Below, one piece after another: positions 17,261 through 34,192 of a stretch of DNA of 64,000 nucleotides (position 1 is its first letter; each line of letters opens with the position of its first letter). Made by a program: the position numbers and the translations under genes. Origin of the DNA: an uncultured Poribacteria bacterium (GTDB taxonomy: Bacteria; Poribacteria; WGA-4E; WGA-3G); assembly GCA_958296135.2 (NCBI GenBank), contig CATQHZ020000001.1, positions 4,947,779 through 5,011,778 of the forward strand, in the 5' to 3' direction. The notes beneath the pieces were generated by a model. That model did not search any database and was not told the origin of the DNA. It saw only the letters and a program-made list of their open reading frames with translations.

Positions 17261-18931
17261 ATGTTGAACAAAACACATCGCCATCACGGAGGGCTCCTAT
17301 TCGGACTCATCGTCCTTTTGACCTTCGCGATGATAGTCACTTCTCATGCCAAAACGATAGAGGAGGTCATCCCCGCGGATAGCTTCCTTTATCTCAAACT
17401 CCAAAACTTGGCCGCGTGCCGCGAGGCAATCGAAACCTCCGACAATTGGAAGGCAGCCGCCGAGTTTATCACTGCGAGCCCCAACTGGGCACTGATGAAC
17501 CAAATGCTGCAAATAGTGCCGATAGTCACCGGGACAGACATTCCCAAGCTCATTGACACGTTTCTGGAAGACCAGGTCGCGCTCACCGTTTCCGCCGGAG
17601 AAGAAGGACTCCTCGTCGGGCTCGTGGTCCAGAATGCGGGTAAGACAGCCGCCGCCGAGCAGACCTTTACTACGCTCACCGAAAGGCTCGCCAGCATGAT
17701 GGGGCACGAAGTCAACGTGACAGAAGATACCTATCGGGACATCACGTATCACGCCGTCGCTGTGAGTGGACAGCAGTTCACTTACGGGAGCCTGGACGCA
17801 GACCTTTTCCTCGTGGGACTCACCCCAGCCAGTTTCAAGAAGGTGGTGGATGTTTACCGCGCCGAGCAGGAATCGATTGCGACAAACGCGACGTATCGTT
17901 CCGTGGTGGAGATGACAGGTGAGCGCGAAGTGTTCGCCTTCGTGGATGTCACCGTGGGAGGGCCCTATTTGCAACTCCTGTTACCGCCGGTTGTCAGCCG
18001 CGAACTCGCAGGTTTCCGCACGTTGGGATATACCTTGGCCCTGTTACGTCCGGGCGACGGCCATCGGCTATACGGACACCTCAACGCCGAGCAGAAGGAG
18101 ACGCTGATTGCTCGGTTTCAAGGGGCCACCGCGATGCAAACCACGCGGGGACTCGCCGGCACAGAGGAATTTTTCCTTGCACTTCCGCCTCAGACAGCAC
18201 CCCTATTCTGGCAAACCGTGCTAGGTGGGCAGGCCCCCTCCGAGGTTCGCAACTTTCTGTTCCCACCAACCGCGGAGTTGCAAGCCGCCCTCGCCGGCGA
18301 ACTGACTTACACTATCGACCTTATCAACTTCGGGGCGCACTCAGGCTCATTATATACGGTACGCTCTAACACAACAGATGACGTGCTAGACTCAGTCGGC
18401 ATTGACTTTGAAGAACTCAACGTTGGTGTCCTCTTCATCCCCGATGCACCGGAAAAATGGCACGCGGTGTTCCAAGGAATGTTGGATAAGTGTGCTGTCC
18501 AGCCGCGCCGAGAAGTGGACTATCGCGGCATTACTTGCAACATCGTAGAGATTCCCGGTTCCCTCTACTACGGCACTATTGACGACATCTTTTTGTTAGC
18601 ATTTTCGGAGAAACAGTTCCAGACGCTAGTGGACGGGCTGTTAGCCGAACCGGCCTCGGGTGGTTTGCAGCAGCGGCTCGCGGCGTTCGCCGCACCGCCC
18701 GCAGCGTGTCTCCAATTTGACTTCGGGGCTTTTATCAGAGGCAGAGCACCGAGTAACTCAAGGATGCCCGCAGAGGTAGTCGCATCCACGGGGCAGATGG
18801 AGCCGCTCTTCGCGTCCCTCGTTGTCCAAGAGGGGACCGCATCGCTAGACATCGGCCACGCGCCAGAGGAAACAGGGAGTGAGGCACTCGCGAAACTGGC
18901 ACCGTTTCTGCTCTTGCCGCTTCTTTTTTAG
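17261..18931 (+). CDS. Exported hypothetical protein, possibly DUF3352-like
   Basis: ATG 17261 with AAGGAG RBS; signal peptide ending 'SHA', 'VIPADSFLYL', internally duplicated beta-rich halves ('DTYRDITY' / 'VDYRGITC'). Confidence 0.65.
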   Translation: MLNKTHRHHGGLLFGLIVLLTFAMIVTSHAKTIEEVIPADSFLYLKLQNLAACREAIETSDNWKAAAEFITASPNWALMNQMLQIVPIVTGTDIPKLIDTFLEDQVALTVSAGEEGLLVGLVVQNAGKTAAAEQTFTTLTERLASMMGHEVNVTEDTYRDITYHAVAVSGQQFTYGSLDADLFLVGLTPASFKKVVDVYRAEQESIATNATYRSVVEMTGEREVFAFVDVTVGGPYLQLLLPPVVSRELAGFRTLGYTLALLRPGDGHRLYGHLNAEQKETLIARFQGATAMQTTRGLAGTEEFFLALPPQTAPLFWQTVLGGQAPSEVRNFLFPPTAELQAALAGELTYTIDLINFGAHSGSLYTVRSNTTDDVLDSVGIDFEELNVGVLFIPDAPEKWHAVFQGMLDKCAVQPRREVDYRGITCNIVEIPGSLYYGTIDDIFLLAFSEKQFQTLVDGLLAEPASGGLQQRLAAFAAPPAACLQFDFGAFIRGRAPSNSRMPAEVVASTGQMEPLFASLVVQEGTASLDIGHAPEETGSEALAKLAPFLLLPLLF

Positions 18932-19015
18932 GACAGCACTGTAGGAGAGACCTCGGGGCTCAATACCACACTTTTGGAAAAATCTGAAACTTTTTTGGAT
19001 TTTTCCAAAAGAGAC

Positions 19016-19044
19016 TTGACAAAAAATCGAAATTTGTATAAAAT
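19016..19044 (+). promoter_or_regulatory. Sigma70 promoter for the leader/permease operon
   Basis: TTGACA (19016-19021), 17 bp, TAAAAT (19039-19044). Confidence 0.7.
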
Positions 19045-19108
19045 AGGGACAGTTTTAAGTTTCAAGAGAAGCAACATCCGTAAACCTTGCTTAACGGGGA
19101 ACAACACA

Positions 19109-19252
19109 GTGAATCAGCGAATTCTTAATCCCATTGTGAAACAGGGCACCCATCGCGGGACGCGGCACCTCTCGTGCGCGTCCGCTCCCTTTGTCGCCCC
19201 ATCACGAGTTCCCGAGCGACTTAAGACCCCCCCCTTCCTTATCTTCTGTTAA
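19109..19252 (+). CDS. Putative 47-aa leader peptide (uORF)
   Basis: GTG start with GGGG SD; homologous to 38621..38797 with synonymous changes and frame-preserving indels. Confidence 0.6.
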   Translation: MNQRILNPIVKQGTHRGTRHLSCASAPFVAPSRVPERLKTPPFLIFC

Positions 19253-19408
19253 GTTTTTATCCCCGGCGGCATCGGTATGCGTCGGTATTCTGCCTTAACT
19301 TCCGCACGCGCCCGGCGCGTTGCGGGCCATCTCCGTTGCAAAACAAAAGACTTGCAACTTTTCAACTAGAACCCCTTTAGGGGTGCAACGTTTATAGGAG
19401 GTCTGTTT

Positions 19409-20956
19409 ATGCAAATGCTTTGGCTCATTATCCGACGCGAAGTTGTCTCCAATGTGCTCACCTCTCGCTTCATCATCGGGTTTCTCGTCTGCCTGCTCGC
19501 AACCGGTGTCGCCGTGTTGGTGCAAGTCAACGATTATGAAAAGCGGTTGACGGCTTACCACACCGCCGTGCGGGAATCGCAGGATGAAGCGCGGACGTGG
19601 GATGTCTATTCCAAAATCAATCCGAAGGCGCACCGAAAGCCGAATCCCCTCGGCATCTTTCACGCCGGGATGGAAACATTCGGCGGGAATACTGTGAGTG
19701 TTGAACCCGCCCGCCCGATTTGGAGCGGGCTGCATATCAGCTTCTTCGCCCCCATTCAGAAGATGGGAACGGACAACCCGTTCCTTTCGATTTTTCTGTC
19801 GGTGGATGTAACGTTCATCTTCAAAATCGTGCTCAGTGCGCTAGCGATTCTGTTCGCTTACAACGCGATTTCGGGGGAAAGGGAAGATGGCACCCTCAAA
19901 CTAGTTTTATCAAACGCTGTGCCGAGGGACACGATAGTGCTCGGGAAATACTTGGGCGGGATGTTCTCGCTGCTGCCCATTGTTGGCGTGAGTCTCCTAT
20001 TCGCCCTCCTTTTTGCCTACGCCTCACCGGCGACGGCCTTTGATGGCAAAGACCTGGCGCACATCGGGCTCATCTTTGCTATCTCGCTGGTGTATGTCTC
20101 AACGTGGTATCTGCTCGGGCTGCTGTTTTCTGTCTGGACGAAGGAAGCTGCCACCACGCTCATCCTGTCCATGTTTGTCTGGGTGATTGTGACAACCGTC
20201 CATTCAAATGTCGCGACATTTGCCGTGGAGCGACTTTTGCCCTCGCAGCCGACAGCGGAATCTTTCCGGCCGATTTTTCAAGAGGCATTGCAAATCTGGG
20301 ACGCTTTCAGGAAAGAACGGAACGCCTACGTGAAACAGAGAGGCCGTGAACAGGCGGCAGACTGGGAGAATCCGCAAGATGCAATTTCCTGGCCATCCAA
20401 AGAACTTGCAAGTGAAATAAGTCACGGTTCTGGAACAGCCCCGTGGTACTCCAAAGAGACCTATGGCGTGAACAATATTGAGCACGCCGACTTGTCCATC
20501 TTTCTGGAGATATTAGGCTATCAGGAACCACTTCGCATTCGCTATGCGGATAAAGTTGAGGAAGTGCTCAACCGACCGAGTCGAGCCGCCGCAAAGAACG
20601 CCCAATTGGCAGCGGATATCTCGCGTCTCTCCTTCGCCGATGTCTATAGTTTTGCGGTGGGCACGCTCGCCGGCACCGACCGGCAGAGCTACACCGATTT
20701 TCTGTCCGCCACGCGAACCTATAAGCGGCAGCTGGTTGATTATCTCGCCGATAAAGAGGCGTTTTCCTCGCCGACGTGGTTTTCCAGTGACAGGGGCGCG
20801 GTGGTGCTCACAGATATGCCGGTGTTCCGGCACCGGCGGCTGTCGCTATCAGAGAGCCTCTCTCGCGCCGCCGGCGACATTTTGATTTTAGTCGCATGGA
20901 ATATCATCCTGTTCATGGCGGCGTATGTCTCGTTCCTCCGCTATGACCTGGGTTGA
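19409..20956 (+). CDS. ABC-2 type transporter permease (type C)
   Basis: AGGAGG RBS; 'FAYNAISGEREDGTLKLVLSNAVPRDTIVLGK'. Confidence 0.9.
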   Translation: MQMLWLIIRREVVSNVLTSRFIIGFLVCLLATGVAVLVQVNDYEKRLTAYHTAVRESQDEARTWDVYSKINPKAHRKPNPLGIFHAGMETFGGNTVSVEPARPIWSGLHISFFAPIQKMGTDNPFLSIFLSVDVTFIFKIVLSALAILFAYNAISGEREDGTLKLVLSNAVPRDTIVLGKYLGGMFSLLPIVGVSLLFALLFAYASPATAFDGKDLAHIGLIFAISLVYVSTWYLLGLLFSVWTKEAATTLILSMFVWVIVTTVHSNVATFAVERLLPSQPTAESFRPIFQEALQIWDAFRKERNAYVKQRGREQAADWENPQDAISWPSKELASEISHGSGTAPWYSKETYGVNNIEHADLSIFLEILGYQEPLRIRYADKVEEVLNRPSRAAAKNAQLAADISRLSFADVYSFAVGTLAGTDRQSYTDFLSATRTYKRQLVDYLADKEAFSSPTWFSSDRGAVVLTDMPVFRHRRLSLSESLSRAAGDILILVAWNIILFMAAYVSFLRYDLG

Positions 20957-21145
20957 GGTCTTTCGTATTGGCGCAAAGCGTTCAATAACAGGGGATGGTG
21001 CAATGGCATCTTTCGCCGTATATCTGTCATCGTCGTTGACGATGACTACGTTCTTGCAGCGATTTTTCAACACCGATCCAGCGCAAGGATTTCACGAACG
21101 AAGTCCTTACTCGCTGAACAGAACCTGCATGCAAAGGAGTGACGA

Positions 21146-22591
21146 ATGATTTGGCATATTGTAAAGAAAGAAATCTATCACAACCTCACGACGTTGAGGT
21201 TCGCGTTGATGATCCTGCTGCTGCCGCTCCTGATGATAGCGAACGCCCTCATCTATGGCTTAGCCGGCGGCGGCTGGATGGCGGAAAATAACACGCATCA
21301 CCAATTGGCAGCCAGATCTTTCAACGAACTCAAAGCGTCAGCGGCTCAGAGTCTGGCGGAGTTAGCCCTCGTCGGGCCTGGGCGCATTTCCAAGCGGCCC
21401 AGCCCGCTGATATTCTGCGCCGATGGAGCGGACGAAGTCATACCGAAATTCGTCATGATGAAGAGCGACATTCACAGTAGTCGCAGCGGCGGTAACGATG
21501 CGGAACCTTACGCATGGCGTTTTCCGTGGACATTAGAATATCCGCTGCCGAGTGAGAGCGGTAATTCGATGCAACGCATCAAATTGGACTGGGTGTTCAT
21601 TGGGATTCTCATGAGCTTCTTCACCATCTTGTTCACGTTTGATGCCATCGCCGGGGAGCGCGCCCGCGGCACACTCAGTCTCATCATGTCCAACCAGATC
21701 TCCCGCGGGCAGGTGCTGTTGGCCAAATACCTCGGGGCATTTATCACGCTCATGGTGCCGCTGGCTATCGGTATCCTGATGAACTTGTTGGTTATCCTCC
21801 TTAGCGGCAGTATCCCGCTCGCCGGCGGCGAGTGGCTGCGCATTCTCGGCATGGTGGGGCTGCTGGCACTGCTGGTTTCAAGTTTCATCTTCCTCGGACT
21901 GTTTTTCTCCAGTCGTGTCTCAAATGCTATCACCGGGTTAGTGTGGCTCTTATTAACCTGGGTCTGCCTCGCGTTCGCCTTTCCGAGTCTGCTCGGCACC
22001 TTCGTCGGGAACCTTAACCCGATTCCATCCGTTGATGAAGTCTCGTTACGGAAAGAGGCACAACTAGCGCAAATCGAAGAAGAATTTCGGGAGCCCCACT
22101 CCACACGGCTAAAAAAAGCGCCGTCTGCCGAAGACCCCGAGACGACGCGCCGCTGGGCCACCTACTTTCTCGCGCGGATAGAGACGCAGACGCAGCTCGC
22201 CGATGCACAGATCGACTGGCAGTTCCGACAGGTGCAACTCGCCCGAGACCTGACGCAGTTCTCGCCGATAGCGTGCTTCCAATATGCGATGGAGGGACTC
22301 GCAAACACAGGTGTTGTGAGCTACATGAATTTCGTCAAACACGCGCGCCGCTATCGCCAAACGTTTACCGATTTCATCAAGACGGAGGATAGGACAGACT
22401 CGGCGAGTCTGCATATCTATCCGGTGAAAGAGGGATTATCTCAAAAACCGGTTGATGTGGCAGCGGTGCCGCAGTTTCAAGAGGCACTCTCGCATGAAAG
22501 TGTGCTGCTGCCGGTGGGATTGCTAATCCTATTTAACGCGCTGTTCTTCATCATCGCGCAGATTTCGTTTCTGAAGAGCGAGGTGAAGTAA
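21146..22591 (+). CDS. ABC-2 type transporter permease (type D)
   Basis: 'FTFDAIAGERARGTLSLIMSNQISRGQVLLAK'. Confidence 0.9.
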   Translation: MIWHIVKKEIYHNLTTLRFALMILLLPLLMIANALIYGLAGGGWMAENNTHHQLAARSFNELKASAAQSLAELALVGPGRISKRPSPLIFCADGADEVIPKFVMMKSDIHSSRSGGNDAEPYAWRFPWTLEYPLPSESGNSMQRIKLDWVFIGILMSFFTILFTFDAIAGERARGTLSLIMSNQISRGQVLLAKYLGAFITLMVPLAIGILMNLLVILLSGSIPLAGGEWLRILGMVGLLALLVSSFIFLGLFFSSRVSNAITGLVWLLLTWVCLAFAFPSLLGTFVGNLNPIPSVDEVSLRKEAQLAQIEEEFREPHSTRLKKAPSAEDPETTRRWATYFLARIETQTQLADAQIDWQFRQVQLARDLTQFSPIACFQYAMEGLANTGVVSYMNFVKHARRYRQTFTDFIKTEDRTDSASLHIYPVKEGLSQKPVDVAAVPQFQEALSHESVLLPVGLLILFNALFFIIAQISFLKSEVK

Positions 22592-22844
22592 ATATCCCTT
22601 TCACCGTCGCGCGAGGGAAAACCCGGCGAGCGCGAATCGCCGAGGGTTCACCTCGCAAAATCAAACTGAGCGAAAAAAAATGCAACCTTTTCGCATCACG
22701 GGTGTGTAACATTTCAGTCAGGCAACTTTTTTGCAACTCGTTTGTAGTTTGGATAAGTAGACAACCTTTGTTTCCGAATTTTTCAGGAAATAGGGTATAA
22801 TAGCATAGAGACCGGAACCAACAACGATGATGGAGGTTTTGAAA

Positions 22845-23987
22845 ATGAGACATCAAAACGGTTGGCTCACGCTTACCTTTCTCAGCGTTTTCGCCATCGT
22901 CCTCTCTCTCAGCGGACAGGCGAACGCGGAAACTTGGAGTTACTCTGCTCGTTACTCTCACAACGGGGTAACTCTCAGCGAAGTCGTGGAATTTGAGAGC
23001 CCGGATGCAATCACCACGGGACAATATGAGGGAACGCAGACTGCGGCGGCACTCATGGCGGCGTTTGATGCGGCTTACACTAAGGCACGCCCGAAAACCA
23101 CTGTGACGGTGTCGCGTCAAGGGAAGCGTGCTGAAATCAAAAGCGAGTGGACCGAGGCAGAAATCGATGCCCGGTATCCACGCGCCGAGTGGCTGCAGCT
23201 GCTTTTGGATAAAGACATCACAATAACGCACTTCGGAGACTACGCCATGTCTCTGTCGAAACGGCATACGCTGGCACTCTTGAAGGATAACCCGAAACTG
23301 TGGCAGTGGCGGCTCCTGGGCATTCCACCGACGAAAGATTGGCATACCTACAAAGCGGCGTATCTCAATAAGGGCGTAGACTTCCATGCGCAGTCCCGGA
23401 AAGTGGCGGCATCTGTCGAAGCGGTGAAGGAACAAGTTGAACGCGCGAAGGAACTTATTCCTGCCGTGCCAGCTCCGCCGCACATTCCTGCGATGCCGAT
23501 TCCTGCCGTGCCAGCTCCGCCGCACATTCCTGCGATGCCGAACCTCTGGCAAGAAGTTGATGAAATCGAGCAACTGGTCGAAGAGTTCAAAGCGGCAATT
23601 GAGGAAGTCTCCAAGGCCAGGGATGACATCGGTGATGAAATCCCGCAACTAGTCGAAGAGTTCAAAGCGGCAATTGGGGAAGTCTCCAAGGCCAGGGATG
23701 ACATCGGTGATGAAATCGAGCAACTGGTCGAAGAGTTCAAAGCGGCAATTGGGGAAGTCTCCAAGGCCAGGGGTGACATCGGTGAGGGCATCAACGGACA
23801 ACTGAAGCACACGAAAGCGCAAGTGGCGCACGCGAAGCAGCAGTTAAAACGTGCTGAGGCACAAGTTGAACGCGCGAGGCAACAGTTGAGACGTGCCCAA
23901 GAGGCTTTGGAACGTGAGAGAAAGCGGACCTCGCCGCCAGCTCACAAGCGCGAACCGAAGCAGGATAGCAAGGAGGGGACGCTTTAG
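22845..23987 (+). CDS. Exported hypothetical protein with Pro-rich and coiled-coil tandem repeats
   Basis: ATG 22845 with GGAGG RBS; signal peptide ending 'ANA'; two 14-aa and three 25-aa repeats; C-terminal coiled coil. Confidence 0.8.
   Translation: MRHQNGWLTLTFLSVFAIVLSLSGQANAETWSYSARYSHNGVTLSEVVEFESPDAITTGQYEGTQTAAALMAAFDAAYTKARPKTTVTVSRQGKRAEIKSEWTEAEIDARYPRAEWLQLLLDKDITITHFGDYAMSLSKRHTLALLKDNPKLWQWRLLGIPPTKDWHTYKAAYLNKGVDFHAQSRKVAASVEAVKEQVERAKELIPAVPAPPHIPAMPIPAVPAPPHIPAMPNLWQEVDEIEQLVEEFKAAIEEVSKARDDIGDEIPQLVEEFKAAIGEVSKARDDIGDEIEQLVEEFKAAIGEVSKARGDIGEGINGQLKHTKAQVAHAKQQLKRAEAQVERARQQLRRAQEALERERKRTSPPAHKREPKQDSKEGTL
23457..23785 (+). repeat. Intragenic tandem repeats (42 bp x2, 75 bp x3)
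   Basis: Near-perfect direct repeats encoding IPAVPAPPHIPAMP and DEIEQLVEEFKAAIGEVSKARDDIG. Confidence 0.9.
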
Positions 23988-24160
23988 GGGCTCATCCTTT
24001 TATCGGTAGGGCGAGGGCCGTCACGGTCACGCCGTCTTTTTACCGTAGGGCGAGGGCCGTCACGCCGAAACTTTGTCATCTCTGCAGCCTCGCTGCAGAG
24101 ATGTCCACTGTCCCTCGCCATGCCCGATCTTCCCCAGATCGCATTTTATGAGGCGTTACC

Positions 24161-24562
24161 ATGAAAATGCGCAAAATTGACCTGGATCACGTCACATCCA
24201 GCTGCGATGCCATCGCCTTTCTCCGCATGGAAGTTCCTGATGAGCGGTATTATGGCCCCCTGCCATTCGGACACGTTCGGTACGCTTACAAGGGCATTGA
24301 ACAAGAGGCAGGCTTCCCCATGGATCTGGATAAGGAAATCTTCCTGACACGGTTCGACGAGGTTCCGGTTAAGAATGCACTCGGAGAAGATGAACCCTTG
24401 GATGCAGCAGCATGGCAAGCCTTAGAGGCGGCTTTTCGCAAGGCCGCACCCGATTTTATTGCAGCAGTGCAAGAAGACTACGCAGCGCGCTGGCAAAGGT
24501 TTTTTGGCAGCGACGAGGAAATTGAAACCCCACAGGAGGCATATCATGTTACAAACGCGTGA
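24161..24562 (+). CDS. Hypothetical protein homologous to the N-terminal domain of 7267..8181
   Basis: Shared 'IAFLRME...YGP...GxVRYAxxG..QxxGFPMDLxKxIF'; overlaps the ATPase start. Confidence 0.8.
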   Translation: MKMRKIDLDHVTSSCDAIAFLRMEVPDERYYGPLPFGHVRYAYKGIEQEAGFPMDLDKEIFLTRFDEVPVKNALGEDEPLDAAAWQALEAAFRKAAPDFIAAVQEDYAARWQRFFGSDEEIETPQEAYHVTNA

Positions 24563-25280
24563 CTTAACGAAAGTCTACAACGAGACTGTCATGGCGGTGA
24601 ATGCACTCAACCTCACCGTCAACGATGGCGAAATCTATGTCGTACTCGGCGCGAACGGTGCCGGCAAAAGCACGACGATATCGATGCTGCTCAACTTCAT
24701 TGAACCGACGAGCGGCACAGCACTCATCGGTGACATCGAGATTCCGAAGTTTCCGCTGGAGGCGAAGCGGCACCTCGCCTATGTCTCCGAGAACGTGGAA
24801 CTCTATCGCAACTTCACCGCCCGACAAAACCTCGCCTTTTTCGCCAAACTCGGCGGCCGGAAAAAGGTATCCAACGCGGATTTGGATGCCACCCTTGGGC
24901 GCGTCGGATTACCCGAAGCAGCGTTCACGCGGCGGGTGAAGACGTTCTCCAAAGGGATGCGGCAACGCTTGGGCATCGCGATTGCTATGATGAAGAATGC
25001 GCAGGCGGTGCTGCTGGACGAACCGACTTCGGGGTTAGACCCGAAGGGCGGTGCCGATTTTCTAAACCTGCTGCGTGACTTGCGGGAGGAAGGGAAAGCT
25101 ATCTTCATGTCGACACACGACATTTTCCGCGCGAAGGAGATAGCTGACAAGATTGGCATTCTCGTCGCCGGCAATTTGGAGCGCGAGTTAACGCGCGAAG
25201 ATATAGCGCAGGAAAATCTGGAGGCGTTGTATCTCCGCTACGTCGCGGGGTATGAACCGGCAGAGGAGGACAGCGAGTGA
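24546..25280 (+). CDS. ABC transporter ATP-binding protein
   Basis: ATG 24546 with AGGAGG RBS; Walker A 'GANGAGKS', 'FSKGMRQR', 'LLDEPTSGLD'. Confidence 0.95.
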   Translation: MLQTRDLTKVYNETVMAVNALNLTVNDGEIYVVLGANGAGKSTTISMLLNFIEPTSGTALIGDIEIPKFPLEAKRHLAYVSENVELYRNFTARQNLAFFAKLGGRKKVSNADLDATLGRVGLPEAAFTRRVKTFSKGMRQRLGIAIAMMKNAQAVLLDEPTSGLDPKGGADFLNLLRDLREEGKAIFMSTHDIFRAKEIADKIGILVAGNLERELTREDIAQENLEALYLRYVAGYEPAEEDSE

Positions 25281-27622
25281 TGTATTTCGTCGTTTCTCGC
25301 GGGGGTTTGGCTGCGTCTGGCCGGGTCCCGTTTCCTTCTCCGGCAGACGTGCCGCTTTCAAGTCTAGCCGGTAGGCATCCGTTTGGCGCGCCGGTTCTCA
25401 GGCTGTTCCTCTGCCTGCTGTTCCTGCTGGCCCCCGTGTCTCTGTCCCCTTTGTTCGCGCAAGATGCGGCGAAGACGAAGGATGAGCAGAGCCGTGAAAT
25501 CGCCACCAAACGCGCCCGCTTGGAGATGGAACTCGCCGAGAACCTGATGAAGGAGAAGCAGATTGAACTCGAAAATCTGCAGGCGATGATGCGCGAAGAG
25601 AACAACATCGTTACCGTCTCCGAGGTGAATCAGGCCGAGGAAGAACACAAACGCGCCATCGCCGAGTATGAAAAGGCGAAGTTGAACCTGCAGCAGGTGG
25701 AACTCGATTCGTTGAAGGATGCATGGCACATCACCGTCGAAAGCACGCGGCTCTATGAATCGCGCGACGGCAGGGAACTGTTCGCCATTACGCTGCGCAA
25801 CAGGTCCCTGCCTGTCACTCTCACCGAGAGCTCCAAAGTGCTTGGACGCGAGGTTGTCGTGAGCGCGCAAGTGGACGACATCTTCGTCTCCATTAAAGAG
25901 AAAGAGGACTTTGGCCGGGGCGGTGCCATCATCGCCGAACCTTACGAACGCCGAATTGAGACGTTGAAAGAAGGCGAAGCGGTGACCCTGGAGTTTGAGC
26001 TCATCAAGGAGGATGTCCGGAATGTCGTCGTGGCATTGGACTACCTCGATGTTGAGGAGGAACGCAACATCCACCTGAAGCAGGAAGAACCCTACATCTC
26101 CGTCGTCTCGGCGCGCCGTTACAAACAGGGAGACCGGCGGCGGTTGGAGGTTATCCTTACCTACGGTGCAGTAACAAGCGATGACGACGCATCGGTGGAC
26201 ACCGTCCAAAACACGGCGCAGGAAATCAACAACGTCTACATCTCGATTCAAGACGATTCGGCGGCCATCATCGGCTACCCTTACGAGCAAAAGATTCGGA
26301 CGCTGCGCGACGGCGAGGAGAAACTGCTGGACTTTGAACTCCGCCGGAATGTGGATAGTCTCACCGTCAATTTGCGCTATCTGGACAAGGATTACCCCTA
26401 TAAAATCCACTTGGAGGAAGACACGCGCCACCTCTCGATTTTGAGTGCCAAGAAGTTCCGGGTAGAGAACCAGATGATGGTAACGCTGCAACTGAAGAAT
26501 ACCTCCACAACAGAGGCGATGCCGATGAATGCCACCCCAGAGGAAATCGCCGCCGCTAATGAAATCCGCTCGCTTTATGTCTCCTTGCTTGATGTCACCG
26601 ATGACACGAACATCGTCAAACCTTACGAAGCAAACGTCCCAGTGCTCGGCTACAATGAGACAGTAGCACTGACATTTCAACTCCAAAAAGATGTGGAAAG
26701 CCTGAAGGTGTCGCTCAAGTACCCAGAACTGCCCGAACCGGACATACGGCTGATTTATCTGCAGAAGGAATCGGCGTTGGATGTCGTCAATGTCAGTTCG
26801 TTGCGGTTTTCACAGGAGGGAAACCTCGGCAGCAATGTTACCTATGATTTGACGTTGGATCGGTTAGCGGAGACAGAGAACACGTTTCAGTTGCGCGTCA
26901 TTAACCTGTTGGACCGGCTCACGTTTGAATTTCAGGACCCCGAGACGAAATCGCGGCAGTCACAGGTGAAGTTTACACAAGAACAATCCAAGCGCGCCCT
27001 GCAGTTGATTGTGTACCTGCCGGAAGAGTTGGATGCCGCCTATCTTGATAGCACACTGGAATTTTACGTGGCGGTGCTCGATGAATCGGAGGCAAACGCA
27101 CTCGGCGGTGCCAATAACCGGCTGGACTTGCCTGCGGAGCGGCTGGCCGGTATCCAAGGCGGAATTGAGCGGTTTGAGTTGATTCCGAAAGGGGTGCCAG
27201 AGATTGAACTTTTCGTGCCGAATGCGTTCCAAACGATTCAGGTAGGCGAGCCGGTGCAGATGACAGCAACGCTCGAGAACATCGGCACGCGAGATCTGGT
27301 GGACATCCGCATGGTGGTGGAAGTGAACACCGAGTGGAACTACACCGTGTCGCCGGAAGTCATTCGTTCGCTAAAGCGCAACGAAAATACAGAGATTCAG
27401 GTGACGTTGAACCCACCCTCAGACATCGGCGTCGGAGAATATGAGGCGAAGGTGAATGCGGAAGTCACCGTGGATAACCGCAAGGTGGAAGCACGCGACC
27501 GGTCGATTACGGTGAAGGTGGAGTCGCAGACGCAGGTGTCAATCACGACGCTGCTGTTTGTGCTGCTGATTCTCCTGGTCATCGGCATCGCCATCGTCAC
27601 GATACGGATTAGCCGCCGGTAG
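25277..27622 (+). CDS. Signal peptide + coiled coil + three repeated beta domains + NEW3/COG1470-like domain + C-terminal TM anchor
   Basis: Overlaps the ATPase stop; repeats 'xxxxYVSIxD...II..PYE..I..L...E...L.FEL...V..L.V.L.Y'; 'LENIGTRDL...WNYTVSPEVI...PPSDIGVGEY'. Confidence 0.75.
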   Translation: MMYFVVSRGGLAASGRVPFPSPADVPLSSLAGRHPFGAPVLRLFLCLLFLLAPVSLSPLFAQDAAKTKDEQSREIATKRARLEMELAENLMKEKQIELENLQAMMREENNIVTVSEVNQAEEEHKRAIAEYEKAKLNLQQVELDSLKDAWHITVESTRLYESRDGRELFAITLRNRSLPVTLTESSKVLGREVVVSAQVDDIFVSIKEKEDFGRGGAIIAEPYERRIETLKEGEAVTLEFELIKEDVRNVVVALDYLDVEEERNIHLKQEEPYISVVSARRYKQGDRRRLEVILTYGAVTSDDDASVDTVQNTAQEINNVYISIQDDSAAIIGYPYEQKIRTLRDGEEKLLDFELRRNVDSLTVNLRYLDKDYPYKIHLEEDTRHLSILSAKKFRVENQMMVTLQLKNTSTTEAMPMNATPEEIAAANEIRSLYVSLLDVTDDTNIVKPYEANVPVLGYNETVALTFQLQKDVESLKVSLKYPELPEPDIRLIYLQKESALDVVNVSSLRFSQEGNLGSNVTYDLTLDRLAETENTFQLRVINLLDRLTFEFQDPETKSRQSQVKFTQEQSKRALQLIVYLPEELDAAYLDSTLEFYVAVLDESEANALGGANNRLDLPAERLAGIQGGIERFELIPKGVPEIELFVPNAFQTIQVGEPVQMTATLENIGTRDLVDIRMVVEVNTEWNYTVSPEVIRSLKRNENTEIQVTLNPPSDIGVGEYEAKVNAEVTVDNRKVEARDRSITVKVESQTQVSITTLLFVLLILLVIGIAIVTIRISRR

Positions 27623-27639
27623 GGAGGACTGAAAACGAC

Positions 27640-29013
27640 ATGAACATACGACTGACAGCACTGTCACTGTGCTTGCTGTTGCTAGTGGCGCGTGCTGTCC
27701 CCGCGCAACGGCTCGTTTCCCTGACACCGACGCGCGCCATCGCATTGGCATTGAAAAACAACGAGGCCGTCAGGCAGGCAGAAAAGGTTGTTGAACGCAC
27801 CCAGGCGAATCTTCGCCTCTCCAAAGCCATCTATCTGCCGCAGGTGGGACTTACCGGTGAATATAAACGCCAAAAGGCGGGCGATACCGATGAACGGGAC
27901 TACCTCTCCCGCGGGCAGCTCAGCCTCTTGCTGGCACAATTCGGCGAAGTACCGGAAGGACTTGACACCACGCAGGAAGCCGTACGGAAAGCAGAGATTG
28001 CCGCCGAACGCGTCAAAAAAGACATTGTCTCCGAACTCCGCAACCTCTGGCACGATATTATCTTGACGCAGGAGGAAATTACGCAACGCCGCGCGATTGA
28101 GGTAGAACTCGTCAAAAAACTGAAAGGCACGCAAATCAAACACGAGAAAAAGCGGATTCTCTTCTTGAGCCGCCTCAATACGGAATTGGAACTGTCGGAA
28201 CAGCAGCTCGCACTGAACGAACTCCAGCGGCGGCTGGATGTGGACACGGCGGAACTCATCCGCCTCACCGGGCTGGACCCGCTCGCAAACGTCGTCCTCT
28301 CGCAACCCCTGCCAGACGACGACATCACACTGGAAGCCGCTGTGGAATTCGCGCTCGGCAACAGCCTCGCGCTGCAGGACTTGAAAGGCGACATCGCCCG
28401 CCAAGAACGACTCGTCGGCGAGACGCTCTGGAACCGGTTCCCCGAAGTCTCTGCCGAGGCGCGCTATCGCGACTTGCGCGTCTTGTTGGAACAGCATCCA
28501 GGCCAGCGGACATGGGATGCAACGGCGCGCTACTCGCCAGTGCTGCTGGACAGAGAACGCGATGTGCCGAGCATCTTTGAACGCACCCCGCGTGCCGAAC
28601 AGGGATGGGAGCTGCGGTTTAATCTCAACATTCCGCTGTTCGATGGACACGAAACAAAAAACTTGCGTTCCGCTGAACTCGCAGAATTGGAGCGACTGCA
28701 TCTAGAACACACCGACAAACGGAAACGCCTCCGCGTCGCCGTCCGGCGCGATTACCGCGCTGTCGCCAACGCTCAAGAACGAATTGAGATTGAGCAGCGA
28801 CGCGTAGAAATCTATGAGCAACGCCTCCGTGCAATTGAACGCGTGCTGGATGAAGTCACGGTGGAATTGCCCAATTATCGCGGGTTGACGTTTGACGATG
28901 CGTTCCAGGCACAGGCGCAGTTCACTGAGGCGCAACGCGTCTTCTATCAAGCACGCCGAGATGGTGCCCGGGCTAAAGAGAAACTGCGGCAAACGATGGA
29001 GTGGATTGATTAA
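27640..29013 (+). CDS. TolC family outer-membrane efflux protein
   Basis: Signal peptide, 'AIALALKNN', 'YLPQVGL', second half 'LEAAVEFALGNS', 'LNIPLFDG'. Confidence 0.85.
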   Translation: MNIRLTALSLCLLLLVARAVPAQRLVSLTPTRAIALALKNNEAVRQAEKVVERTQANLRLSKAIYLPQVGLTGEYKRQKAGDTDERDYLSRGQLSLLLAQFGEVPEGLDTTQEAVRKAEIAAERVKKDIVSELRNLWHDIILTQEEITQRRAIEVELVKKLKGTQIKHEKKRILFLSRLNTELELSEQQLALNELQRRLDVDTAELIRLTGLDPLANVVLSQPLPDDDITLEAAVEFALGNSLALQDLKGDIARQERLVGETLWNRFPEVSAEARYRDLRVLLEQHPGQRTWDATARYSPVLLDRERDVPSIFERTPRAEQGWELRFNLNIPLFDGHETKNLRSAELAELERLHLEHTDKRKRLRVAVRRDYRAVANAQERIEIEQRRVEIYEQRLRAIERVLDEVTVELPNYRGLTFDDAFQAQAQFTEAQRVFYQARRDGARAKEKLRQTMEWID

Positions 29014-29026
29014 TAAGGAGAAGAGC

Positions 29027-29617
29027 ATGAGCACACAACAAATTCACCACGCGGAAGTGGGCATCCAACCCACACCAACCGCGCAGGAACCCCTCTCCCT
29101 GCCAACGATGACCTTGGAAGAATTCCTTGAAAGCGATTTAGAGGGATACGAATATGTTAAAGGAGAATTAATACCGATGCCCCCTACCTCAGGCGAACAC
29201 GGCGATATTAGCGTCAACCTTATTGTGCCATTAGGTGCGTATGTCCGAGAAAATCAGTTAGGGCGTGTTTACATCCCGGACACGGGATTCCGTATAGGCG
29301 AGCGCGTGCTGATACCCGACATCGCGTTTCTCTCAAACGCGCGGCTGCCAGAAGAACGGCGCAAGGCGTTTGAAATCCCGCCGGATTTGGCGGTAGAAGT
29401 GGTCTCCCCATCGGACGCGCAGTTTCGGATTGTCCAAAAGGTGCTGAATTACTTGGATGCCGGCACGCAACTCGTCTGGGTAATCGAACCAGTGGCGAAA
29501 ACGGTGACAGTCTATCGTTCCGAAACCGACATCACGCTGCTCACGCGCGAAGACACGCTAACCGGTGAAGAGGTAGTACCGGGATTTTCGTGTGAAGTCG
29601 GGGAACTTTTCGAGTGA
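29027..29617 (+). CDS. Uma2 family PD-(D/E)XK endonuclease-like protein, copy 1
   Basis: ATG 29027 with AAGGAG RBS; 'YEYVKGEL', 'PDIAF', 'PDLAVEVVSPS'. Confidence 0.92.
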   Translation: MSTQQIHHAEVGIQPTPTAQEPLSLPTMTLEEFLESDLEGYEYVKGELIPMPPTSGEHGDISVNLIVPLGAYVRENQLGRVYIPDTGFRIGERVLIPDIAFLSNARLPEERRKAFEIPPDLAVEVVSPSDAQFRIVQKVLNYLDAGTQLVWVIEPVAKTVTVYRSETDITLLTREDTLTGEEVVPGFSCEVGELFE

Positions 29618-29793
29618 TTTTGTATGGGCGCAAAGCGTCCCATCAGAACTGTTGGGGCAATCGCGTGGCACGGCGGGAGACAGGCACCGCCCTACGAGTT
29701 AATATCAACAGCCACCAGATTTGTAAGGGCAGATGTCTATGGTTTCCGCCCGCGTCAACCGCACAAAACAACTTGACTTAACAGGAGCCAAAC

Positions 29794-30384
29794 ATGAGCA
29801 CACAACAAATTCACCACGCGGCAGTGGGCATCCAACCCACACCAACCGCGCAGGAACCCCTCTCCCTGCCTGCGATGACCTTGGAAGAATTCCTTGAAAG
29901 CGATTTAGAGGGATACGAATATGTTAAAGGAGAATTAATACCGATGCCCCCTACCTCAGGCGAACACGGCGATATTAGCACTAACATTGATTGGTATTTG
30001 CAGGTGCATGTCCGAGAGAATCAATTGGGCCGGGTCTATCTACCCGACACAGGGTTTCGTATAGGCGAGCGCGTGCTGATACCCGACATCGCGTTTCTCT
30101 CAAACGCGCGGCTGCCAGAAGAACGGCGCAAGGCGTTTGAAATCCCGCCGGATTTGGCGGTAGAGGTAGTCTCCCCATCGGACGCGCAGTTTCGGATTGT
30201 CCAAAAGGTGCTGAACTACTTGGATGCCGGCACGCAACTCGTCTGGGTAATTGAACCAGTGGCGAAAACGGTGACAGTCTATCGTTCCGAAACCGACATC
30301 ACGCTGCTCACGCGCGAAGACACGCTAACCGGTGAAGAGGTAGTACCGGGATTTTCGTGTGAAGTCGGGGAACTTTTCGAGTGA
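29794..30384 (+). CDS. Uma2 family endonuclease-like protein, copy 2
   Basis: Tandem near-identical duplicate at a 767-bp offset. Confidence 0.92.
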   Translation: MSTQQIHHAAVGIQPTPTAQEPLSLPAMTLEEFLESDLEGYEYVKGELIPMPPTSGEHGDISTNIDWYLQVHVRENQLGRVYLPDTGFRIGERVLIPDIAFLSNARLPEERRKAFEIPPDLAVEVVSPSDAQFRIVQKVLNYLDAGTQLVWVIEPVAKTVTVYRSETDITLLTREDTLTGEEVVPGFSCEVGELFE

Positions 30385-30437
30385 TTTTGTATGGGCGCAA
30401 AGCGTCCCATCAGAACTGTTGGGGCAATCGCGTGGCA

Positions 30438-30606
30438 CGGCGGGGGCCAGTGGACATCTCTGCTGGAAAACCCGCTGCGGTCGACGGCGTAGGCGGGTTT
30501 GCGAAAGCCAAACCCGCCGAAGATGCGTCATTCGGCTTTGCGAATGACGCTGCGCCGTCGACCGAAGAGATGACAGACTGAAGGCGTAACGGCCCCCGCC
30601 CTACGG
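30438..30606 (-). repeat. Nested multi-branch REP-derived palindrome between convergent genes
   Basis: Outer GGCGGGGGCC..GGCCCCCGCCCTAC stem enclosing CATCTCT/AGAGATG, CGGTCGACGGCG/CGCCGTCGACCG and two inner hairpins. Confidence 0.8.
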
Positions 30607-30625
30607 TGAAAGGGGGCGGTTGACA

Positions 30626-32050
30626 TCACACCTCCGCACGAACAAAGACAAGATAGGCACCCGACAGCAACACCACTAGAAACAGAAGCAACAGCAAAAA
30701 ATCCATCGCCGCGGCATTGAAATCACGGCTGAGGCTGAGTGTATCTGCAAATTTCGGAATCGCCTCCGGCGGGACGCTTCGTTCCGACATCCCCTCGCTG
30801 ATGCCCAAGATATGTAGACTCCCCGGGTCGGCTCTATCCATATCCGCGACGAATTGGCGGTAATGGCGCGCATACCGCCGCACATTTTCTAGGAACTGCT
30901 GATGCCGTTCAAACCCCGTGCCCGCGAAGGCTTCAAACAGCTGCGACACAATCGCGGCGGGAGAAAGGCGAGTCATCGCGCGCGCACGTCTGCCCTGCGC
31001 CAACTGCTGGCTGAGATAGTCATCGTTGAAGCGTTCAAACCGTACCGCATCCGTCTGCACATATTCTCCCCACAGCTGCAATTCTCTATAGGCGCGCGTG
31101 CCCGGGCGCGCGTTCTTTTCAGGCGGACGCAACTGGTATCGTTCCACGTATGCCTTCTTGTTCTCCTTCGGGATGTGCAGCCTGCGCCGCCAGAATTCGT
31201 TGTAGTCCACCGGCGCATTCGTGGCACCGCGGAGTGCCGCCAATGTGCTAGGCATAAAGACAACGAAGCAGACCCAGGTGAACAACAAGATGACAAGACT
31301 CACGCCGCTCTCTCGCACGCGGGCGGAAATGAGGAGCCCAAGCGCAATAAAAAGCGACGTATAGAGGACAGCGATGCCGCATAAGAGAGCCAAACGGCCC
31401 CACTCTTCCGCGCCGAGTTGCACGGCACTTGAGGTAGAAATCACCAGCAAATTCATCACAACAGCGAGCGCGAATGGAATGAGAATGCTGAGAAAAACAC
31501 CGAAGAACTTGCCCATTAAAACGGTGTGCCGCGGTATAGCATTCGCAAGCATTAAGCGCAAAGTGCCGCGTTCACGTTCGCCGGCGATAGCATCAAAGGT
31601 AAACAGAATCGCAATGAAACTGAGCACATAGCCGACGATGAACGCCCAATCTATCTGCGTGAAATCGGGGCGGATATTGAGCAGATTCGGGTTCTCTTGA
31701 GGATACGTGAGCCGCCATATAGGCATTTCTCCATCAACCCAATTGTGTCCTTCAGCGAGTTTTGGCAAAAAATTCTCGCTACCGTCAGCACAGAACTGGA
31801 GAAGTGACGGTTTCTTGTAAAGATGCCGCGGGCCCTCTGAAGCGAGGCGATAGAGGCTGCTGCCGCGCGCGTTCAGTTCCTTCGTAGCGCGCGCGACGTT
31901 GTCATGGTATGCCTGCGTCCGCTTCGGATGTTCATGCAGATGCACCGCGGCGTTAGTGAGCATCAGCGCGATGAGCAGCACCGTCGTTAAAGCAAAGCGG
32001 AGGCTATTCAGATTATCGTAAAGGTCGCGTCTCGCAATGTGCCAAACCAT
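30626..32050 (-). CDS. ABC-2 type transporter permease (type B, paralog of 15074..16585)
   Basis: 'MVWHIARRDLYDNLNSLRFAL', 'FDAIAGERERGTLRLMLAN'; start may be 32050 or 32062. Confidence 0.9.
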   Translation of the reverse strand: MVWHIARRDLYDNLNSLRFALTTVLLIALMLTNAAVHLHEHPKRTQAYHDNVARATKELNARGSSLYRLASEGPRHLYKKPSLLQFCADGSENFLPKLAEGHNWVDGEMPIWRLTYPQENPNLLNIRPDFTQIDWAFIVGYVLSFIAILFTFDAIAGERERGTLRLMLANAIPRHTVLMGKFFGVFLSILIPFALAVVMNLLVISTSSAVQLGAEEWGRLALLCGIAVLYTSLFIALGLLISARVRESGVSLVILLFTWVCFVVFMPSTLAALRGATNAPVDYNEFWRRRLHIPKENKKAYVERYQLRPPEKNARPGTRAYRELQLWGEYVQTDAVRFERFNDDYLSQQLAQGRRARAMTRLSPAAIVSQLFEAFAGTGFERHQQFLENVRRYARHYRQFVADMDRADPGSLHILGISEGMSERSVPPEAIPKFADTLSLSRDFNAAAMDFLLLLLFLVVLLSGAYLVFVRAEV

Positions 32051-32199
32051 GATGATACCCAATTCCTCTCTGCAGTTCGGGATTCGTCGCGGACGAAAAA
32101 CTTAACGCCAGAAACGCAGCATGCAACAACGGCGCATGCGGTGCTACGTCAAGAAACGTGATGACACGGAATCCCTCATCGAACGCTTTGCGCCAATAC

Positions 32200-33711
32200 T
32201 TAAACCTCGCGCCGAATGAAAACCAACAGGATACCCATAAACAGCGCGACGTTCACCAAAAACAGGAGCAACATATCGGGCAACGCGCGCTTTGCATGCA
32301 TTAGGACATCGCTACGCTCAAAGGAGAAACGCGGCAAGGCGCGCCAGTCAACCTTCCTTTCTTCCACGAAAAACCATTGTTGTGAGGCGAACATATCCCG
32401 CGCATAGAAATAGTCAATCACTTGCAGACGATAACGTCTCACGGCGGCAAAAAACGCTTGCATGCCGCCCAAGTCTGTGCCAGCCCACGCCTGCGCCGCC
32501 GAGTCGAACATGCCCACCGGTGAGAGTTTGAGCCACAATCTATCCATCACCGCTTGCCGGACGAAAACATCGTCAAGCACCGGCTTTCGGATACGCCACG
32601 TCCTCTCCGCCGCACGGATAGTCAGCGGTTCCATAAAAACGTAATAGCGTTTGACGAGTGGAATGTGCTTCTCAAAGGCCGGCGGCACATCCGAAAGCAC
32701 GGTGGTGTGCTCTGTATCATAGTAGGCAAGGAGCATTGCATCGACATCGGCATGAAACCAAAGTTCCCAAACACCTTCAAAATTCGGCGCATCCGGATCG
32801 ACACCTTCGCGCTTCAGGAACTGCTCCCGCTCCCGCTTCAATTCGTCCCAGATCTGTTGGATTTGATTTTTGGCGGATTGCACGCGCGCCTGCACGCGCG
32901 CCGGTGTCACGAACGGAGCATGGGCAGCACGGATGAGGTTTGGATAGACAAGCACGAGAAAGCCCCACACGAACATCGCGAGCATCAAGGCGGTGTTCGC
33001 ACGGCGCGTCACGGTGGAAATGAACAACCCGAGCAGGTAAAACAGCGACAGATACGCAAACGCAGCAAGCACAATCCCGCCAATGCGCACAAAATCGTTT
33101 GCCTTAACAGAAATCGAGGCAGATGTCGTGAGCAAAAGCGTCGCGAGCAGTAGACTGATGAGCAGCGGAACGAGCAGACACGTCATCGCACTGAACCACT
33201 TGGCGAGCAGGATATGGCCGCGCCGGACCGGCTGCGCGAGGACGAGACGTAAGGTGCCGCGTTCACGTTCGCCGGCAATCGCATCGTAAGCGAAGATGAG
33301 CCCCAGCAGGCTGAGCACGACTTCAAAAATGAAGACAATGTCAATCGACGAAAAGAACGCCAAGAACGGGTTATCTGTGCCGTGCATTTCGGCATCCCAC
33401 AGCGACGGCACAAACCCGTGATACACACCGATGAGGTTGCCAACCCGTTTGTCTAAACCGACGTTGAAAATGCTGAGCGGATTCGGGGCCCTATCCACAA
33501 ACAGCATGTAGTCAGAATAGGCTTTCGCCTCGCGCAACTGGTTTTGGTGCCGTTTGACAGAGGCGTGGTAACTTCCTAACCGGTGCTCGTAGTCCTGAAT
33601 CAGCACCGCCGTATTTGCGACAACAAGAAGCAACGTGATGAAAAGTGCCGCCGAGAACCGGAACGTCATGAGGTTGTTGAGCAGTTCTCTGCGGATGAGG
33701 ATGGGTAACAT
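32200..33711 (-). CDS. ABC-2 type transporter permease (type A, paralog of 13408..14889)
   Basis: 'FAYDAIAGERERGTLRLVLAQPVRRG', 'LKLSP...AWAGTD'. Confidence 0.9.
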   Translation of the reverse strand: MLPILIRRELLNNLMTFRFSAALFITLLLVVANTAVLIQDYEHRLGSYHASVKRHQNQLREAKAYSDYMLFVDRAPNPLSIFNVGLDKRVGNLIGVYHGFVPSLWDAEMHGTDNPFLAFFSSIDIVFIFEVVLSLLGLIFAYDAIAGERERGTLRLVLAQPVRRGHILLAKWFSAMTCLLVPLLISLLLATLLLTTSASISVKANDFVRIGGIVLAAFAYLSLFYLLGLFISTVTRRANTALMLAMFVWGFLVLVYPNLIRAAHAPFVTPARVQARVQSAKNQIQQIWDELKREREQFLKREGVDPDAPNFEGVWELWFHADVDAMLLAYYDTEHTTVLSDVPPAFEKHIPLVKRYYVFMEPLTIRAAERTWRIRKPVLDDVFVRQAVMDRLWLKLSPVGMFDSAAQAWAGTDLGGMQAFFAAVRRYRLQVIDYFYARDMFASQQWFFVEERKVDWRALPRFSFERSDVLMHAKRALPDMLLLFLVNVALFMGILLVFIRREV

Positions 33712-33730
33712 GTTTTTATTGACGGTGCTT

Positions 33731-34172: not shown

Positions 34173-34192
34173 GTTCAACGCATCAGGAGCAT

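Follow-up and report, generated by a model that had tools for sequence, protein, structure and literature searches.

This locus raises the question of why two related leader regions, each with its own promoter, a small open reading frame (ORF) and a series of RNA hairpins, stand ahead of two different operons in a sponge symbiont. The window, by which we mean the whole 64-kb stretch of DNA that was analysed, belongs to the genome of an uncultured sponge-symbiont Poribacteria (the host genome, G000; 5.19 Mb, 53.9% G+C). Copy 1 of the cassette lies on the plus strand (19016-19340) upstream of an ABC-2 exporter operon, and copy 2 on the minus strand (38529-38901) upstream of a LamG-like gene. The cassette is a multi-copy family, not a pair. 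The reading that we favour, with a confidence that is only a little better than even, is that it acts as a transcription-attenuation frame switch: a slippery poly-C run would decide in which frame the leader is read from there on, and hence the output. In the window, both copies show the short ORF, the state for which low expression is predicted. Attenuation had been one of the ideas of the initial annotation of this DNA, and it remains the best reading of a leader ORF joined to RNA hairpins in a cassette with its own promoter.

Anatomy and spread of the cassette

In copy 1, the promoter (19016-19044) consists of a -35 element TTGACA (19016-19021), a 17-nt spacer and a -10 element TAAAAT (19039-19044). 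It matches 11 of the 12 sigma-70 consensus positions used in the promoter scan and is the sole promoter-like site across 18900-19500. A Shine-Dalgarno (SD)-like GGGGAA (19096-19101) stands 7 nt ahead of the GTG start of the leader ORF (19109-19252), which has 47 codons and a TAA stop at 19250-19252. Translation from GTG 19109 gives the peptide VNQRILNPIVKQGTHRGTRHLSCASAPFVAPSRVPERLKTPPFLIFC. This short frame is set by a C8 run (19227-19234), the proposed slippery frame-setting tract, which is read within the codons ACC CCC CCC as Thr-Pro-Pro. A predicted hairpin, H1 (19265-19294), possibly a pause hairpin, is located between the leader stop and the terminator; the latter is formed by hairpin T1 and its tail (19302-19340), with a stem (19302-19326) that is conserved in alignments and a tail ending in an invariant GTTGCA. 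A third predicted hairpin, T2 (19335-19363), comprises GTTGCAA, a 10-nt loop and TTGCAAC (to 19358), followed by TTTTC. The first gene after the cassette (19409-20956, plus strand) encodes an ABC-2 family permease. All of the elements that the initial annotation had described at 19016-19340, namely the promoter, the GTG-started ORF, two hairpins, the tail and the permease, are present in the sequence.

Copy 2 was likewise borne out as a homologue on the other strand. The two copies align with 77% mean column identity, and the frame-keeping gaps of 15 and 18 nt that had been described are both found inside the ORF. Its promoter (38873-38901, minus strand, as for all features of this copy) consists of TTGACA, a 17-nt spacer and TATTAT and again matches 11 of 12 positions. 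A second near-consensus promoter-like site, with TTGACA, a 17-nt spacer, TAAAAT and an extended TG (11 of 12), is located 80 nt further upstream (38981-38953). The 5' untranslated region contains a hairpin (38832-38857; GGTGCGCGCG..CGCGCCGCC) that is present in the copy-2 subtype and missing from the copy-1 subtype. The SD sequence GAGGAA (38811-38806) precedes a leader ORF (38621-38797) that starts with GTG at 38797 and runs for 58 codons to a TAA at 38623-38621. The C8 run (38639-38646; G8 on the plus strand) is followed by the predicted hairpin H1 (38575-38604) and by T1 (38532-38569), which has a stem at 38569-38543 and the tail CTATTTCTGTT and is called as terminator-like. A terminator-like hairpin T2 (38501-38532; stem 38532-38510, 10 pairs, tail TATTTTCCCT) occupies the position equivalent to T2 of copy 1 and differs from it in sequence. 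The three hairpins together fold with -48.6 kcal/mol (z = -3.47), a stability equalled by 1 of 200 shuffled sequences. The first gene after this copy (37611-38456) encodes a Laminin_G_3 (LamG-like) protein. Over the whole window, Rfam 15 covariance models gave no matches at gathering score, and there is no tRNA.

The family extends well beyond the window, which sets the likeness of the two window copies apart from chance. The host genome holds approximately 12 copies; a DNA search with copy 2 returned 10 matches there and 12, 21 and 3 in three relatives, while a profile search of the host genome gave 16 matches at E <= 0.001, of which 7 are near full length. A strict 24-letter pattern of the terminator tail was found in 25 stretches among 185,579 species genomes, all of them titled Poribacteria, and in 6 metagenome contigs. 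A covariance model built on the 3' module (run, stop, H1 and T1), with at most 21 candidates scored per genome, found matches in 88 of the 151 genomes of the phylum. These include 84 of the 99 other genomes of the host's own family and, weakly, 3 of the 26 genomes of a second family; the remaining families of the phylum gave none. In all, at least 517 matches to this model were obtained across Poribacteria genomes.

The shared anatomy was established on 38 near-full copies taken from four genomes, 37 of which have an SD-preceded ORF. The parts of a copy are, in order, a near-consensus sigma-70 promoter, an SD sequence with its start codon, a 41-65-codon leader ORF, a run of C7 to C14, a stop at +15 nt, H1, T1 and a co-oriented gene. 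All copies parsed retain a start codon and, at equal spacing, an SD sequence of the GAGGAA or GGGGA type, and the frame is maintained although start codons (GTG, ATG) and N-termini vary. Within the ORF, 9 of 11 gap blocks have a length divisible by three, as against 10 of 39 outside it. Together with the retained SD and start, this makes it likely that the leader ORF is translated, as the initial annotation had argued.

The peptide itself is poorly conserved, and part of the ORF also forms RNA hairpins. Neither of the window peptides nor one extended form matched any Pfam family at E <= 0.01, and a protein search with the copy 2 peptide returned only two related proteins (one of similar length and one longer) among 5.8 billion, both of which are cassette copies of a single relative (G004). 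These data bear on the possibility that the cassette is a free-standing gene for a small protein or a dual-function small RNA, its position being incidental or the next gene being reached by weak read-through. The unit does span promoter to terminator, with an ORF conserved in frame, as such a gene would. However, a sequence so poorly conserved, with so few relatives in the database, is not what is expected of one, and in the copies examined the cassette lies directly upstream of a co-oriented gene; in neither window copy did the promoter scan find a promoter-like site between the cassette and that gene. We regard a free-standing gene as quite improbable.

At the RNA level, H1 covaries across the family (alignment columns 89/127: AU 14, GC 12, GU 4) and the T1 stem is nearly invariant. 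RNAalifold, run on two family alignments, predicted H1 and T1 and no conserved competing antiterminator helix. It also predicted a pairing of the SD region with the 3' GTTGCA tail, which we rejected, the pairs being nearly invariant and having no covariation support; a helix that would join the SD/start region to the GUCACGAGUUCCCGUUC segment is seen in single-sequence folds and likewise lacks covariation, and we keep it as a tentative candidate. The GTTGCA directly after T1 (19335-19340 and 38534-38529 in the window) is the same in every subfamily, and the third hairpin that always begins with it varies in sequence. It might serve in protein binding or in processing. A related TGCAAAC is seen where copy-2-type transcripts are predicted to begin, and palindromes of the TTGCAAC type occur at 22700-22740.

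The poly-C run and its reading frames

The C run of the cassette remains unbroken even in copies that have diverged past easy alignment. It measures 7-11 nt within the host genus and 8-14 nt in other genera. In the host genome CCC is a minor proline codon (22% of proline codons, compared with 49% for CCG), and only 69 of the 2140 Pro-Pro pairs in long ORFs (3.2%) are written CCCCCC. The retention of pure C in diverged copies in spite of this codon usage argues that the run is under selection as nucleotide sequence. On these grounds the selected feature is the C homopolymer and the Pro-Pro its by-product, which reverses the emphasis that the initial annotation had placed on a Pro-Pro motif. The two cysteines and the C-terminal TPPxLxFC that it had listed are indeed shared by copies 1 and 2; they do not extend to the family, where the tail after Thr-Pro-Pro consists of 0-9 variable residues.

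An explanation centred on the nascent peptide would have ribosomes pause at the Pro-Pro, in response to EF-P, tRNA-Pro or a small molecule, and thereby alter RNA folding and termination without any change in the DNA. Every copy encodes Pro-Pro or Pro-Pro-Pro at the run, followed in many by Asp, Tyr or Pro, the frame of the leader ORF is preserved, and RAPP-type peptides, in the portions of the reports available to us, demonstrate that a C-terminal Pro-Pro can arrest ribosomes. The arrest of the RAPP or CutF type that the initial annotation had drawn on is not upheld, however. The motif is Ser/Phe/Lys-Thr-Pro-Pro rather than Arg-Ala/Gly-Pro-Pro, the peptides match no Pfam family (DUF2946 included), they have no hydrophobic N-terminus, and the cassettes are not upstream of Sec or YidC genes. 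Family-wide, the residues before Pro-Pro vary (Ser, Phe, Lys, Leu or Met, plus Thr or Pro) and the peptide is weakly constrained. Stalling would furthermore leave unexplained both the purity of the run, with CCG as the main proline codon, and its drift in length between 7 and 14. A ribosome halted at the run or at the stop would sit at least 50 nt before T1, with no conserved antiterminator pairing found through which it could act. We consider polyproline stalling decidedly unlikely.

The length of the run is mutable. Among 33 paralogue pairs with flanks at least 90% identical (100 nt on each side of the run), run length differs in 18, corresponding to about seven times the per-nucleotide indel rate of the flanks, and in one pair with 100% identical flanks the runs are C8 and C9. 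A pair on contig C1 of the host genome, near 2933748 and 3492933 (flanks 96.8% identical, C8 versus C9), looks like a classical in-gene translational phase switch; in its C9 member the short ORF continues into the downstream gene without a stop over at least 1499 nt.

Near-identical metagenome alleles also differ mainly at the tract. The C8 allele L125 stops at the TAA, and in L126 and L127 the ORF continues past T1 as far as a TGA, which forms an ATGA with the start codon of a 624-aa secreted-type gene. Allele L129 (C9) agrees with L126 and L127 in its tract frame and in having this ATGA, there at a 908-aa gene, as judged by eye from an alignment in which the ORF start is off the contig. Over 3.7 kb downstream, L126 and L127 share 99.4% identity; between L126 1-420 and L127 780-1210 the tract is (CT)4 plus C9 versus C11, an indel of 6 nt follows the stop, and the sequences ahead of the leader start are wholly different, which suggests recombination or cassette swapping at these sites. 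For the window itself (19000-38950), Logan contigs from four runs of one sample showed no indel at either C run among the rows listed; since these contigs drop rare variants, they are uninformative either way on tract heterogeneity.

The consequences of run length for the leader frame were followed in 36 copies with a run of at least 6 C, from four genomes. In 32 of them the leader stop falls 60-124 nt before the 3' end of T1, that is before H1, and in copies 1 and 2 and most others the distance is 77-82 nt. The other four now read past T1: L044 (C9), L059 (C10), L090, in which the long frame arises from an upstream +1 insertion, and the host-genome copy at 3172786. The extended ORF of L044 ends in ATGA, and we considered coupling to the next gene there, but no ORF of at least 40 aa starts at this ATG. 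In other genera, 12 of 20 loci could be parsed (7 of the remainder were not resolved by the SD-ORF parser and 1 has an interrupted run), and of these 4 are in a read-through frame and 8 in a short one. A frame open past the terminator is possessed by 34 of the 36 copies, and shuffled sequence often has one likewise.

In copies 1 and 2 and most copies of a congener (G002), the stop of the current frame lies at +15 after the run, the frame that would follow loss of one C stops at +31 to +61, and the frame that would follow gain of one C is open through H1, T1 and T2. For copy 1, this +1C frame (19237-19380) is stop-free over 19237-19377 and ends at a TAG (19378-19380), leaving 28 nt to the permease ATG at 19409. 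For copy 2, it runs through all three hairpins (38475-38636, minus strand) to a TAA at 38477-38475, 18 nt from the ATG at 38456; both distances were checked by translation. The -1C frame of copy 1 ends at a TAA (19296-19298) that is 3 nt ahead of T1, and this state might likewise interfere with T1.

Put together, the proposed frame switch would operate as follows. A strong promoter would start a leader RNA carrying the SD, the start codon and a frame-preserved ORF that ends in the C run. With C8, the ribosome would be released approximately 50 nt or more before T1, T1 would form and most transcripts would end there, giving the low state. With one additional C, ribosomes would enter the frame in which no stop is met in H1, T1 or T2 and which ends shortly before the next start codon. 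A translating ribosome would then prevent folding of the terminator, and transcription would proceed into the ABC-2 exporter operon after copy 1 or into the LamG/ABC-2 operon after copy 2. The change of frame would most likely be a heritable change of run length by slipped-strand mispairing, i.e. phase variation; slippage of RNA polymerase or of the ribosome on the run would be a non-heritable version of the same logic. H1 may make the polymerase pause and in this way keep it coupled to the ribosome.

Several observations weigh against this mechanism. Two copies, L082 and the host-genome copy at 520871, have no open alternative frame. When the segment that reaches from the run to T1 was dinucleotide-shuffled, one or more frames had no stop up to the end of T1 in 42-97% of trials, and such a frame is seen in 13 of 14 representatives where 11.1 are expected. 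How far the open frame extends toward the next gene is no more telling (per-copy p of 0.05-0.66; 0.44 for copy 1 and 0.40 for copy 2). T1 of copy 1 has a weak U tract and is not called by a simple terminator scan, and the three-hairpin fold of this copy is no more stable than its shuffles (z = -1.27). Mean pairwise differences at the three codon positions are 0.241, 0.247 and 0.304, a weak coding signal that also blunts the argument for translation which the initial annotation had made from synonymous changes. The run, finally, is exactly C8 in both window copies and in both copy 1 orthologues from two congeners, and most G002 copies keep C8 despite 10-30% divergence; a fixed C8 equally fits selection for the short ORF as such. 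Given these shuffles, the open frame alone is no evidence, and the case for a frame switch rests on the homopolymer, its mutability, the adjacent fixed stop, the terminator and the precedent of the streptococcal pil1 locus discussed below.

Downstream genes and the genome-wide census of runs

Cassettes precede co-oriented genes, mostly those of secreted or surface proteins or of ABC-2 exporters. At the host-genome loci examined, the next co-oriented ORF starts approximately 50-460 nt from the cassette, and in one partial copy there are about 770 nt to the first Pfam-assigned gene. The downstream genes in the host genome encode WD40/FlgD_ig, patatin, LamG, dockerin/cohesin/FlgD_ig, DNA methylase, DUF362 and ABC-2 proteins. 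Those in G002 encode a tyrosinase, a dockerin protein, a cohesin protein with a Por_Secre_tail-like domain, an FGE-sulfatase, a TPR protein, a trypsin-like protein, a C92 peptidase and an ABC-2 permease; by a crude rule, 11 of the 16 G002 downstream proteins listed have signal-peptide-like N-termini. The copy-1 subtype is kept before an orthologous ABC-2 permease in three species (the host and two congeners). The link to ABC permeases made in the initial annotation thus holds for this subtype and not for the rest of the family. Across the loci examined, the association is with export or surface functions as a class and not specifically with ABC permeases.

This distribution also speaks to the notion that the cassette has no regulatory logic at all, being a selfish or mobile promoter-bearing repeat akin to a miniature inverted-repeat transposable element, or a precursor peptide gene for the neighbouring ABC/TolC exporter. 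Mobility would account for the many copies ahead of varied genes and for the near-identical alleles with different upstream parts, in which recombination is suggested. It sits poorly with the uniform orientation and distance to the next gene in the copies examined and with the retention of the copy-1 subtype before the same permease in three species, and no terminal inverted repeats or target duplications were noticed, although no systematic search for them was made. An exported peptide, the other suggestion of the initial annotation, had the adjoining exporter of copy 1 in its favour, but the same cassette precedes many unrelated genes, among them those for tyrosinase, peptidase, TPR and dockerin proteins, and the would-be core, the tail after the run, is variable and 0-9 residues long. 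Even taken together, we give these two ideas very little credence, less than to any other alternative considered here.

Poly-C tracts in leader ORFs are not confined to this one family. In the host genome, the number of C/G runs is non-monotonic with length, with a peak at 9 (568 of length 6, 62 of 7, 28 of 8, 44 of 9 and 10 of 10), unlike that of A/T runs, which declines steadily. Two stretches were excluded from this census as probable artefacts of assembly or sequencing: on the small contig C4 (7759-7864), a C17 run with a C88 run after it, and on C1 (3588012-3588121), a C/CA-rich low-complexity stretch. Of the 79 runs of at least 8, 48 have an A immediately before the run, and in 44 a TTAA-type motif is found no more than 30 nt away, in most cases at +13 or +14. 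These runs group into several families of 14, 9, 7, 6, 5 and fewer members. The 14-member family has an unrelated leader ORF with the same order of promoter, SD, GTG-started ORF, C8-C10 run, GTTAAC and hairpins. Its ORF begins GTGAACACTC..., GTTAAC follows approximately 13 nt after the run, and 5 of the 14 members are now in the long frame; examples on contig C1 are found at 853308, 1011799, 1154313, 1697146, 2576553, 3888131 and 4478316. With a crude parser, about 30 of the 79 runs have a promoter 200-300 nt upstream together with an SD-preceded ORF. The run counts and their flanking motifs suggest dozens of tract-bearing loci per genome and, with the 14-member family, are further grounds for taking the homopolymer as the feature under selection.

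The recurrence of a motif at fixed spacing in several otherwise unrelated leader families (the 44 of 79 runs above) could alternatively mean that a trans-acting factor, a poly-C-binding protein or a G-rich small RNA, reads the arrangement of A-C8-10, about 13 nt and GTTAA in the leader, as RNA or as DNA. Termination or leader translation would then be controlled jointly at dozens of loci, and the invariant GTTGCA after T1, otherwise unexplained, might find a role. No candidate factor was identified, however, and a length that varies from 8 to 14 would be odd for a specific binding site. The GTTAA moreover provides the in-frame TAA in short-ORF copies, and in the 14-member family the combination of run length and spacing tracks whether this TAA is in frame. 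We hold a trans-acting factor to be unlikely, if less so than the other alternatives.

The frame switch leads to a wider proposition, to which we would assign a real chance, though one somewhat short of even: that in Poribacteria, widespread uncultured symbionts of sponges, dozens of poly-C cassettes per genome, of several families, make up a genome-wide system of stochastic switching, each flipping one secreted-protein, adhesin-like or exporter operon by one-base slippage. Each lineage would, in that event, show the sponge and its phages a different surface and secretome. A heritable random switch, of a kind mostly known from pathogens, would be varying the exported and surface proteins of a symbiont, and the two ABC-2/TolC-type exporter operons in the window would be under such a switch. 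Such variation would be relevant to the persistence of symbionts inside an animal that filters its food and has phagocytes, and to their survival under pressure from phages. No contingency-locus system would have been described earlier in a beneficial marine symbiont, and the leader-ORF attenuation switch, known so far from one streptococcal case, would never have been seen on nearly this scale; leader-peptide attenuation would emerge as a general design, workable with plain homopolymers. No publication on such cassettes was found in the literature on Poribacteria phase variation, homopolymers, leader peptides and sponge-symbiont contingency loci. For annotation, dozens of small predicted-translated ORFs and terminators per genome are currently missed, and the length of a C run in an assembly would, if the switch is real, have to be taken as a state and not as an error.

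Elsewhere in the window, the copy 1 permease is followed, up to 29013, by further ABC-2 permeases, an ABC ATPase and an OEP/TolC-like protein, and the LamG-like gene after copy 2 by four ABC-2 permease genes down to 30626. Intergenic GC-rich repeats resembling repetitive extragenic palindromes lie among the ABC-2 genes (33710-34195, 22590-22660, 23985-24120 and 30385-30630). Tandem units of approximately 120 nt are among them. Genome-wide, the core GTAGGGCGAGG is counted 432 times and GTAGGAGAGACCTC 237 times, and these stretches have very high k-mer depth in mapped contigs.

Comparison with known systems

Short leader ORFs upstream of an intrinsic terminator are familiar from the trp and his leader peptides and from pyrBI and pyrE, where termination depends on how far the ribosome is from the polymerase along the leader. 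The Poribacteria cassette shares the leader ORF placed ahead of an intrinsic terminator. It differs from trp and his in carrying no run of regulatory amino-acid codons other than proline, and no conserved antiterminator hairpin was found in it. Its proposed input, moreover, is the reading frame and not, as in these attenuators, charged tRNA or nucleotide supply.

The arrest peptides ApdA, ApdP and ApcA carry a RAPP or RGPP motif (PMC7897499, PMC10951233, PMC12992588). As far as the accessible portions of these reports allow a comparison, the cassette resembles them in having a small upstream ORF with a Pro-Pro near its C-terminus. Its peptides, in contrast, end in Lys/Ser/Phe-Thr-Pro-Pro plus 0-9 residues without RAPP or RGPP, they have no secretion-monitoring N-terminus, and the cassette is not upstream of Sec or YidC. 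The Pro-Pro of the cassette derives from a nucleotide homopolymer. The srp proteusins of sponge symbionts, which belong to the ribosomally synthesised and post-translationally modified peptides, were also considered and are unrelated, being NHLP precursors with an LCCCW core.

Neisseria and Haemophilus, like Campylobacter jejuni, have contingency loci built on homopolymeric tracts. In C. jejuni, according to the part of the report available to us, the poly-G genes are in-gene switches and not leader attenuators (PMC11955535). On the same partial basis, the likeness to the cassette lies in runs of 8-10 G/C nucleotides, in slippage, in surface or host-interaction genes and in the large number of loci. 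The difference lies in where the tract is found, usually the coding sequence or a promoter spacer in contingency loci and, in the cassette, a separate leader ORF proposed to gate a terminator.

Leader-based switching by a hypermutable repeat is described for the pil1 locus of Streptococcus gallolyticus, where a leader peptide gene contains GCAGA repeats (Danne et al., 2014; PMC3894217). In the portion of that study open to us, which also underlies the comparison that follows, repeat numbers that keep the frame lead to a peptide that stops 39 bp short of a terminator and to low expression, while out-of-frame numbers yield a longer peptide, reaching into or past the terminator, and high expression (PMC3894217). 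The switch is demonstrated in pil1, whereas the cassette is known from its sequence alone. The repeat is a pentamer in pil1 and a C homopolymer in the cassette, which also has a hairpin between stop and terminator and a second terminator-like hairpin. The pil1 host is a Firmicute with one or two such loci, compared with dozens per Poribacteria genome. The design is otherwise much the same. In pil1 (and pil3), as in the cassette, a promoter is followed by a leader ORF with a hypermutable repeat, the stop of the low state lies upstream of the terminator (by 39 bp in pil1 and by about 50 nt or more in the cassette), and the genes under control encode surface structures.

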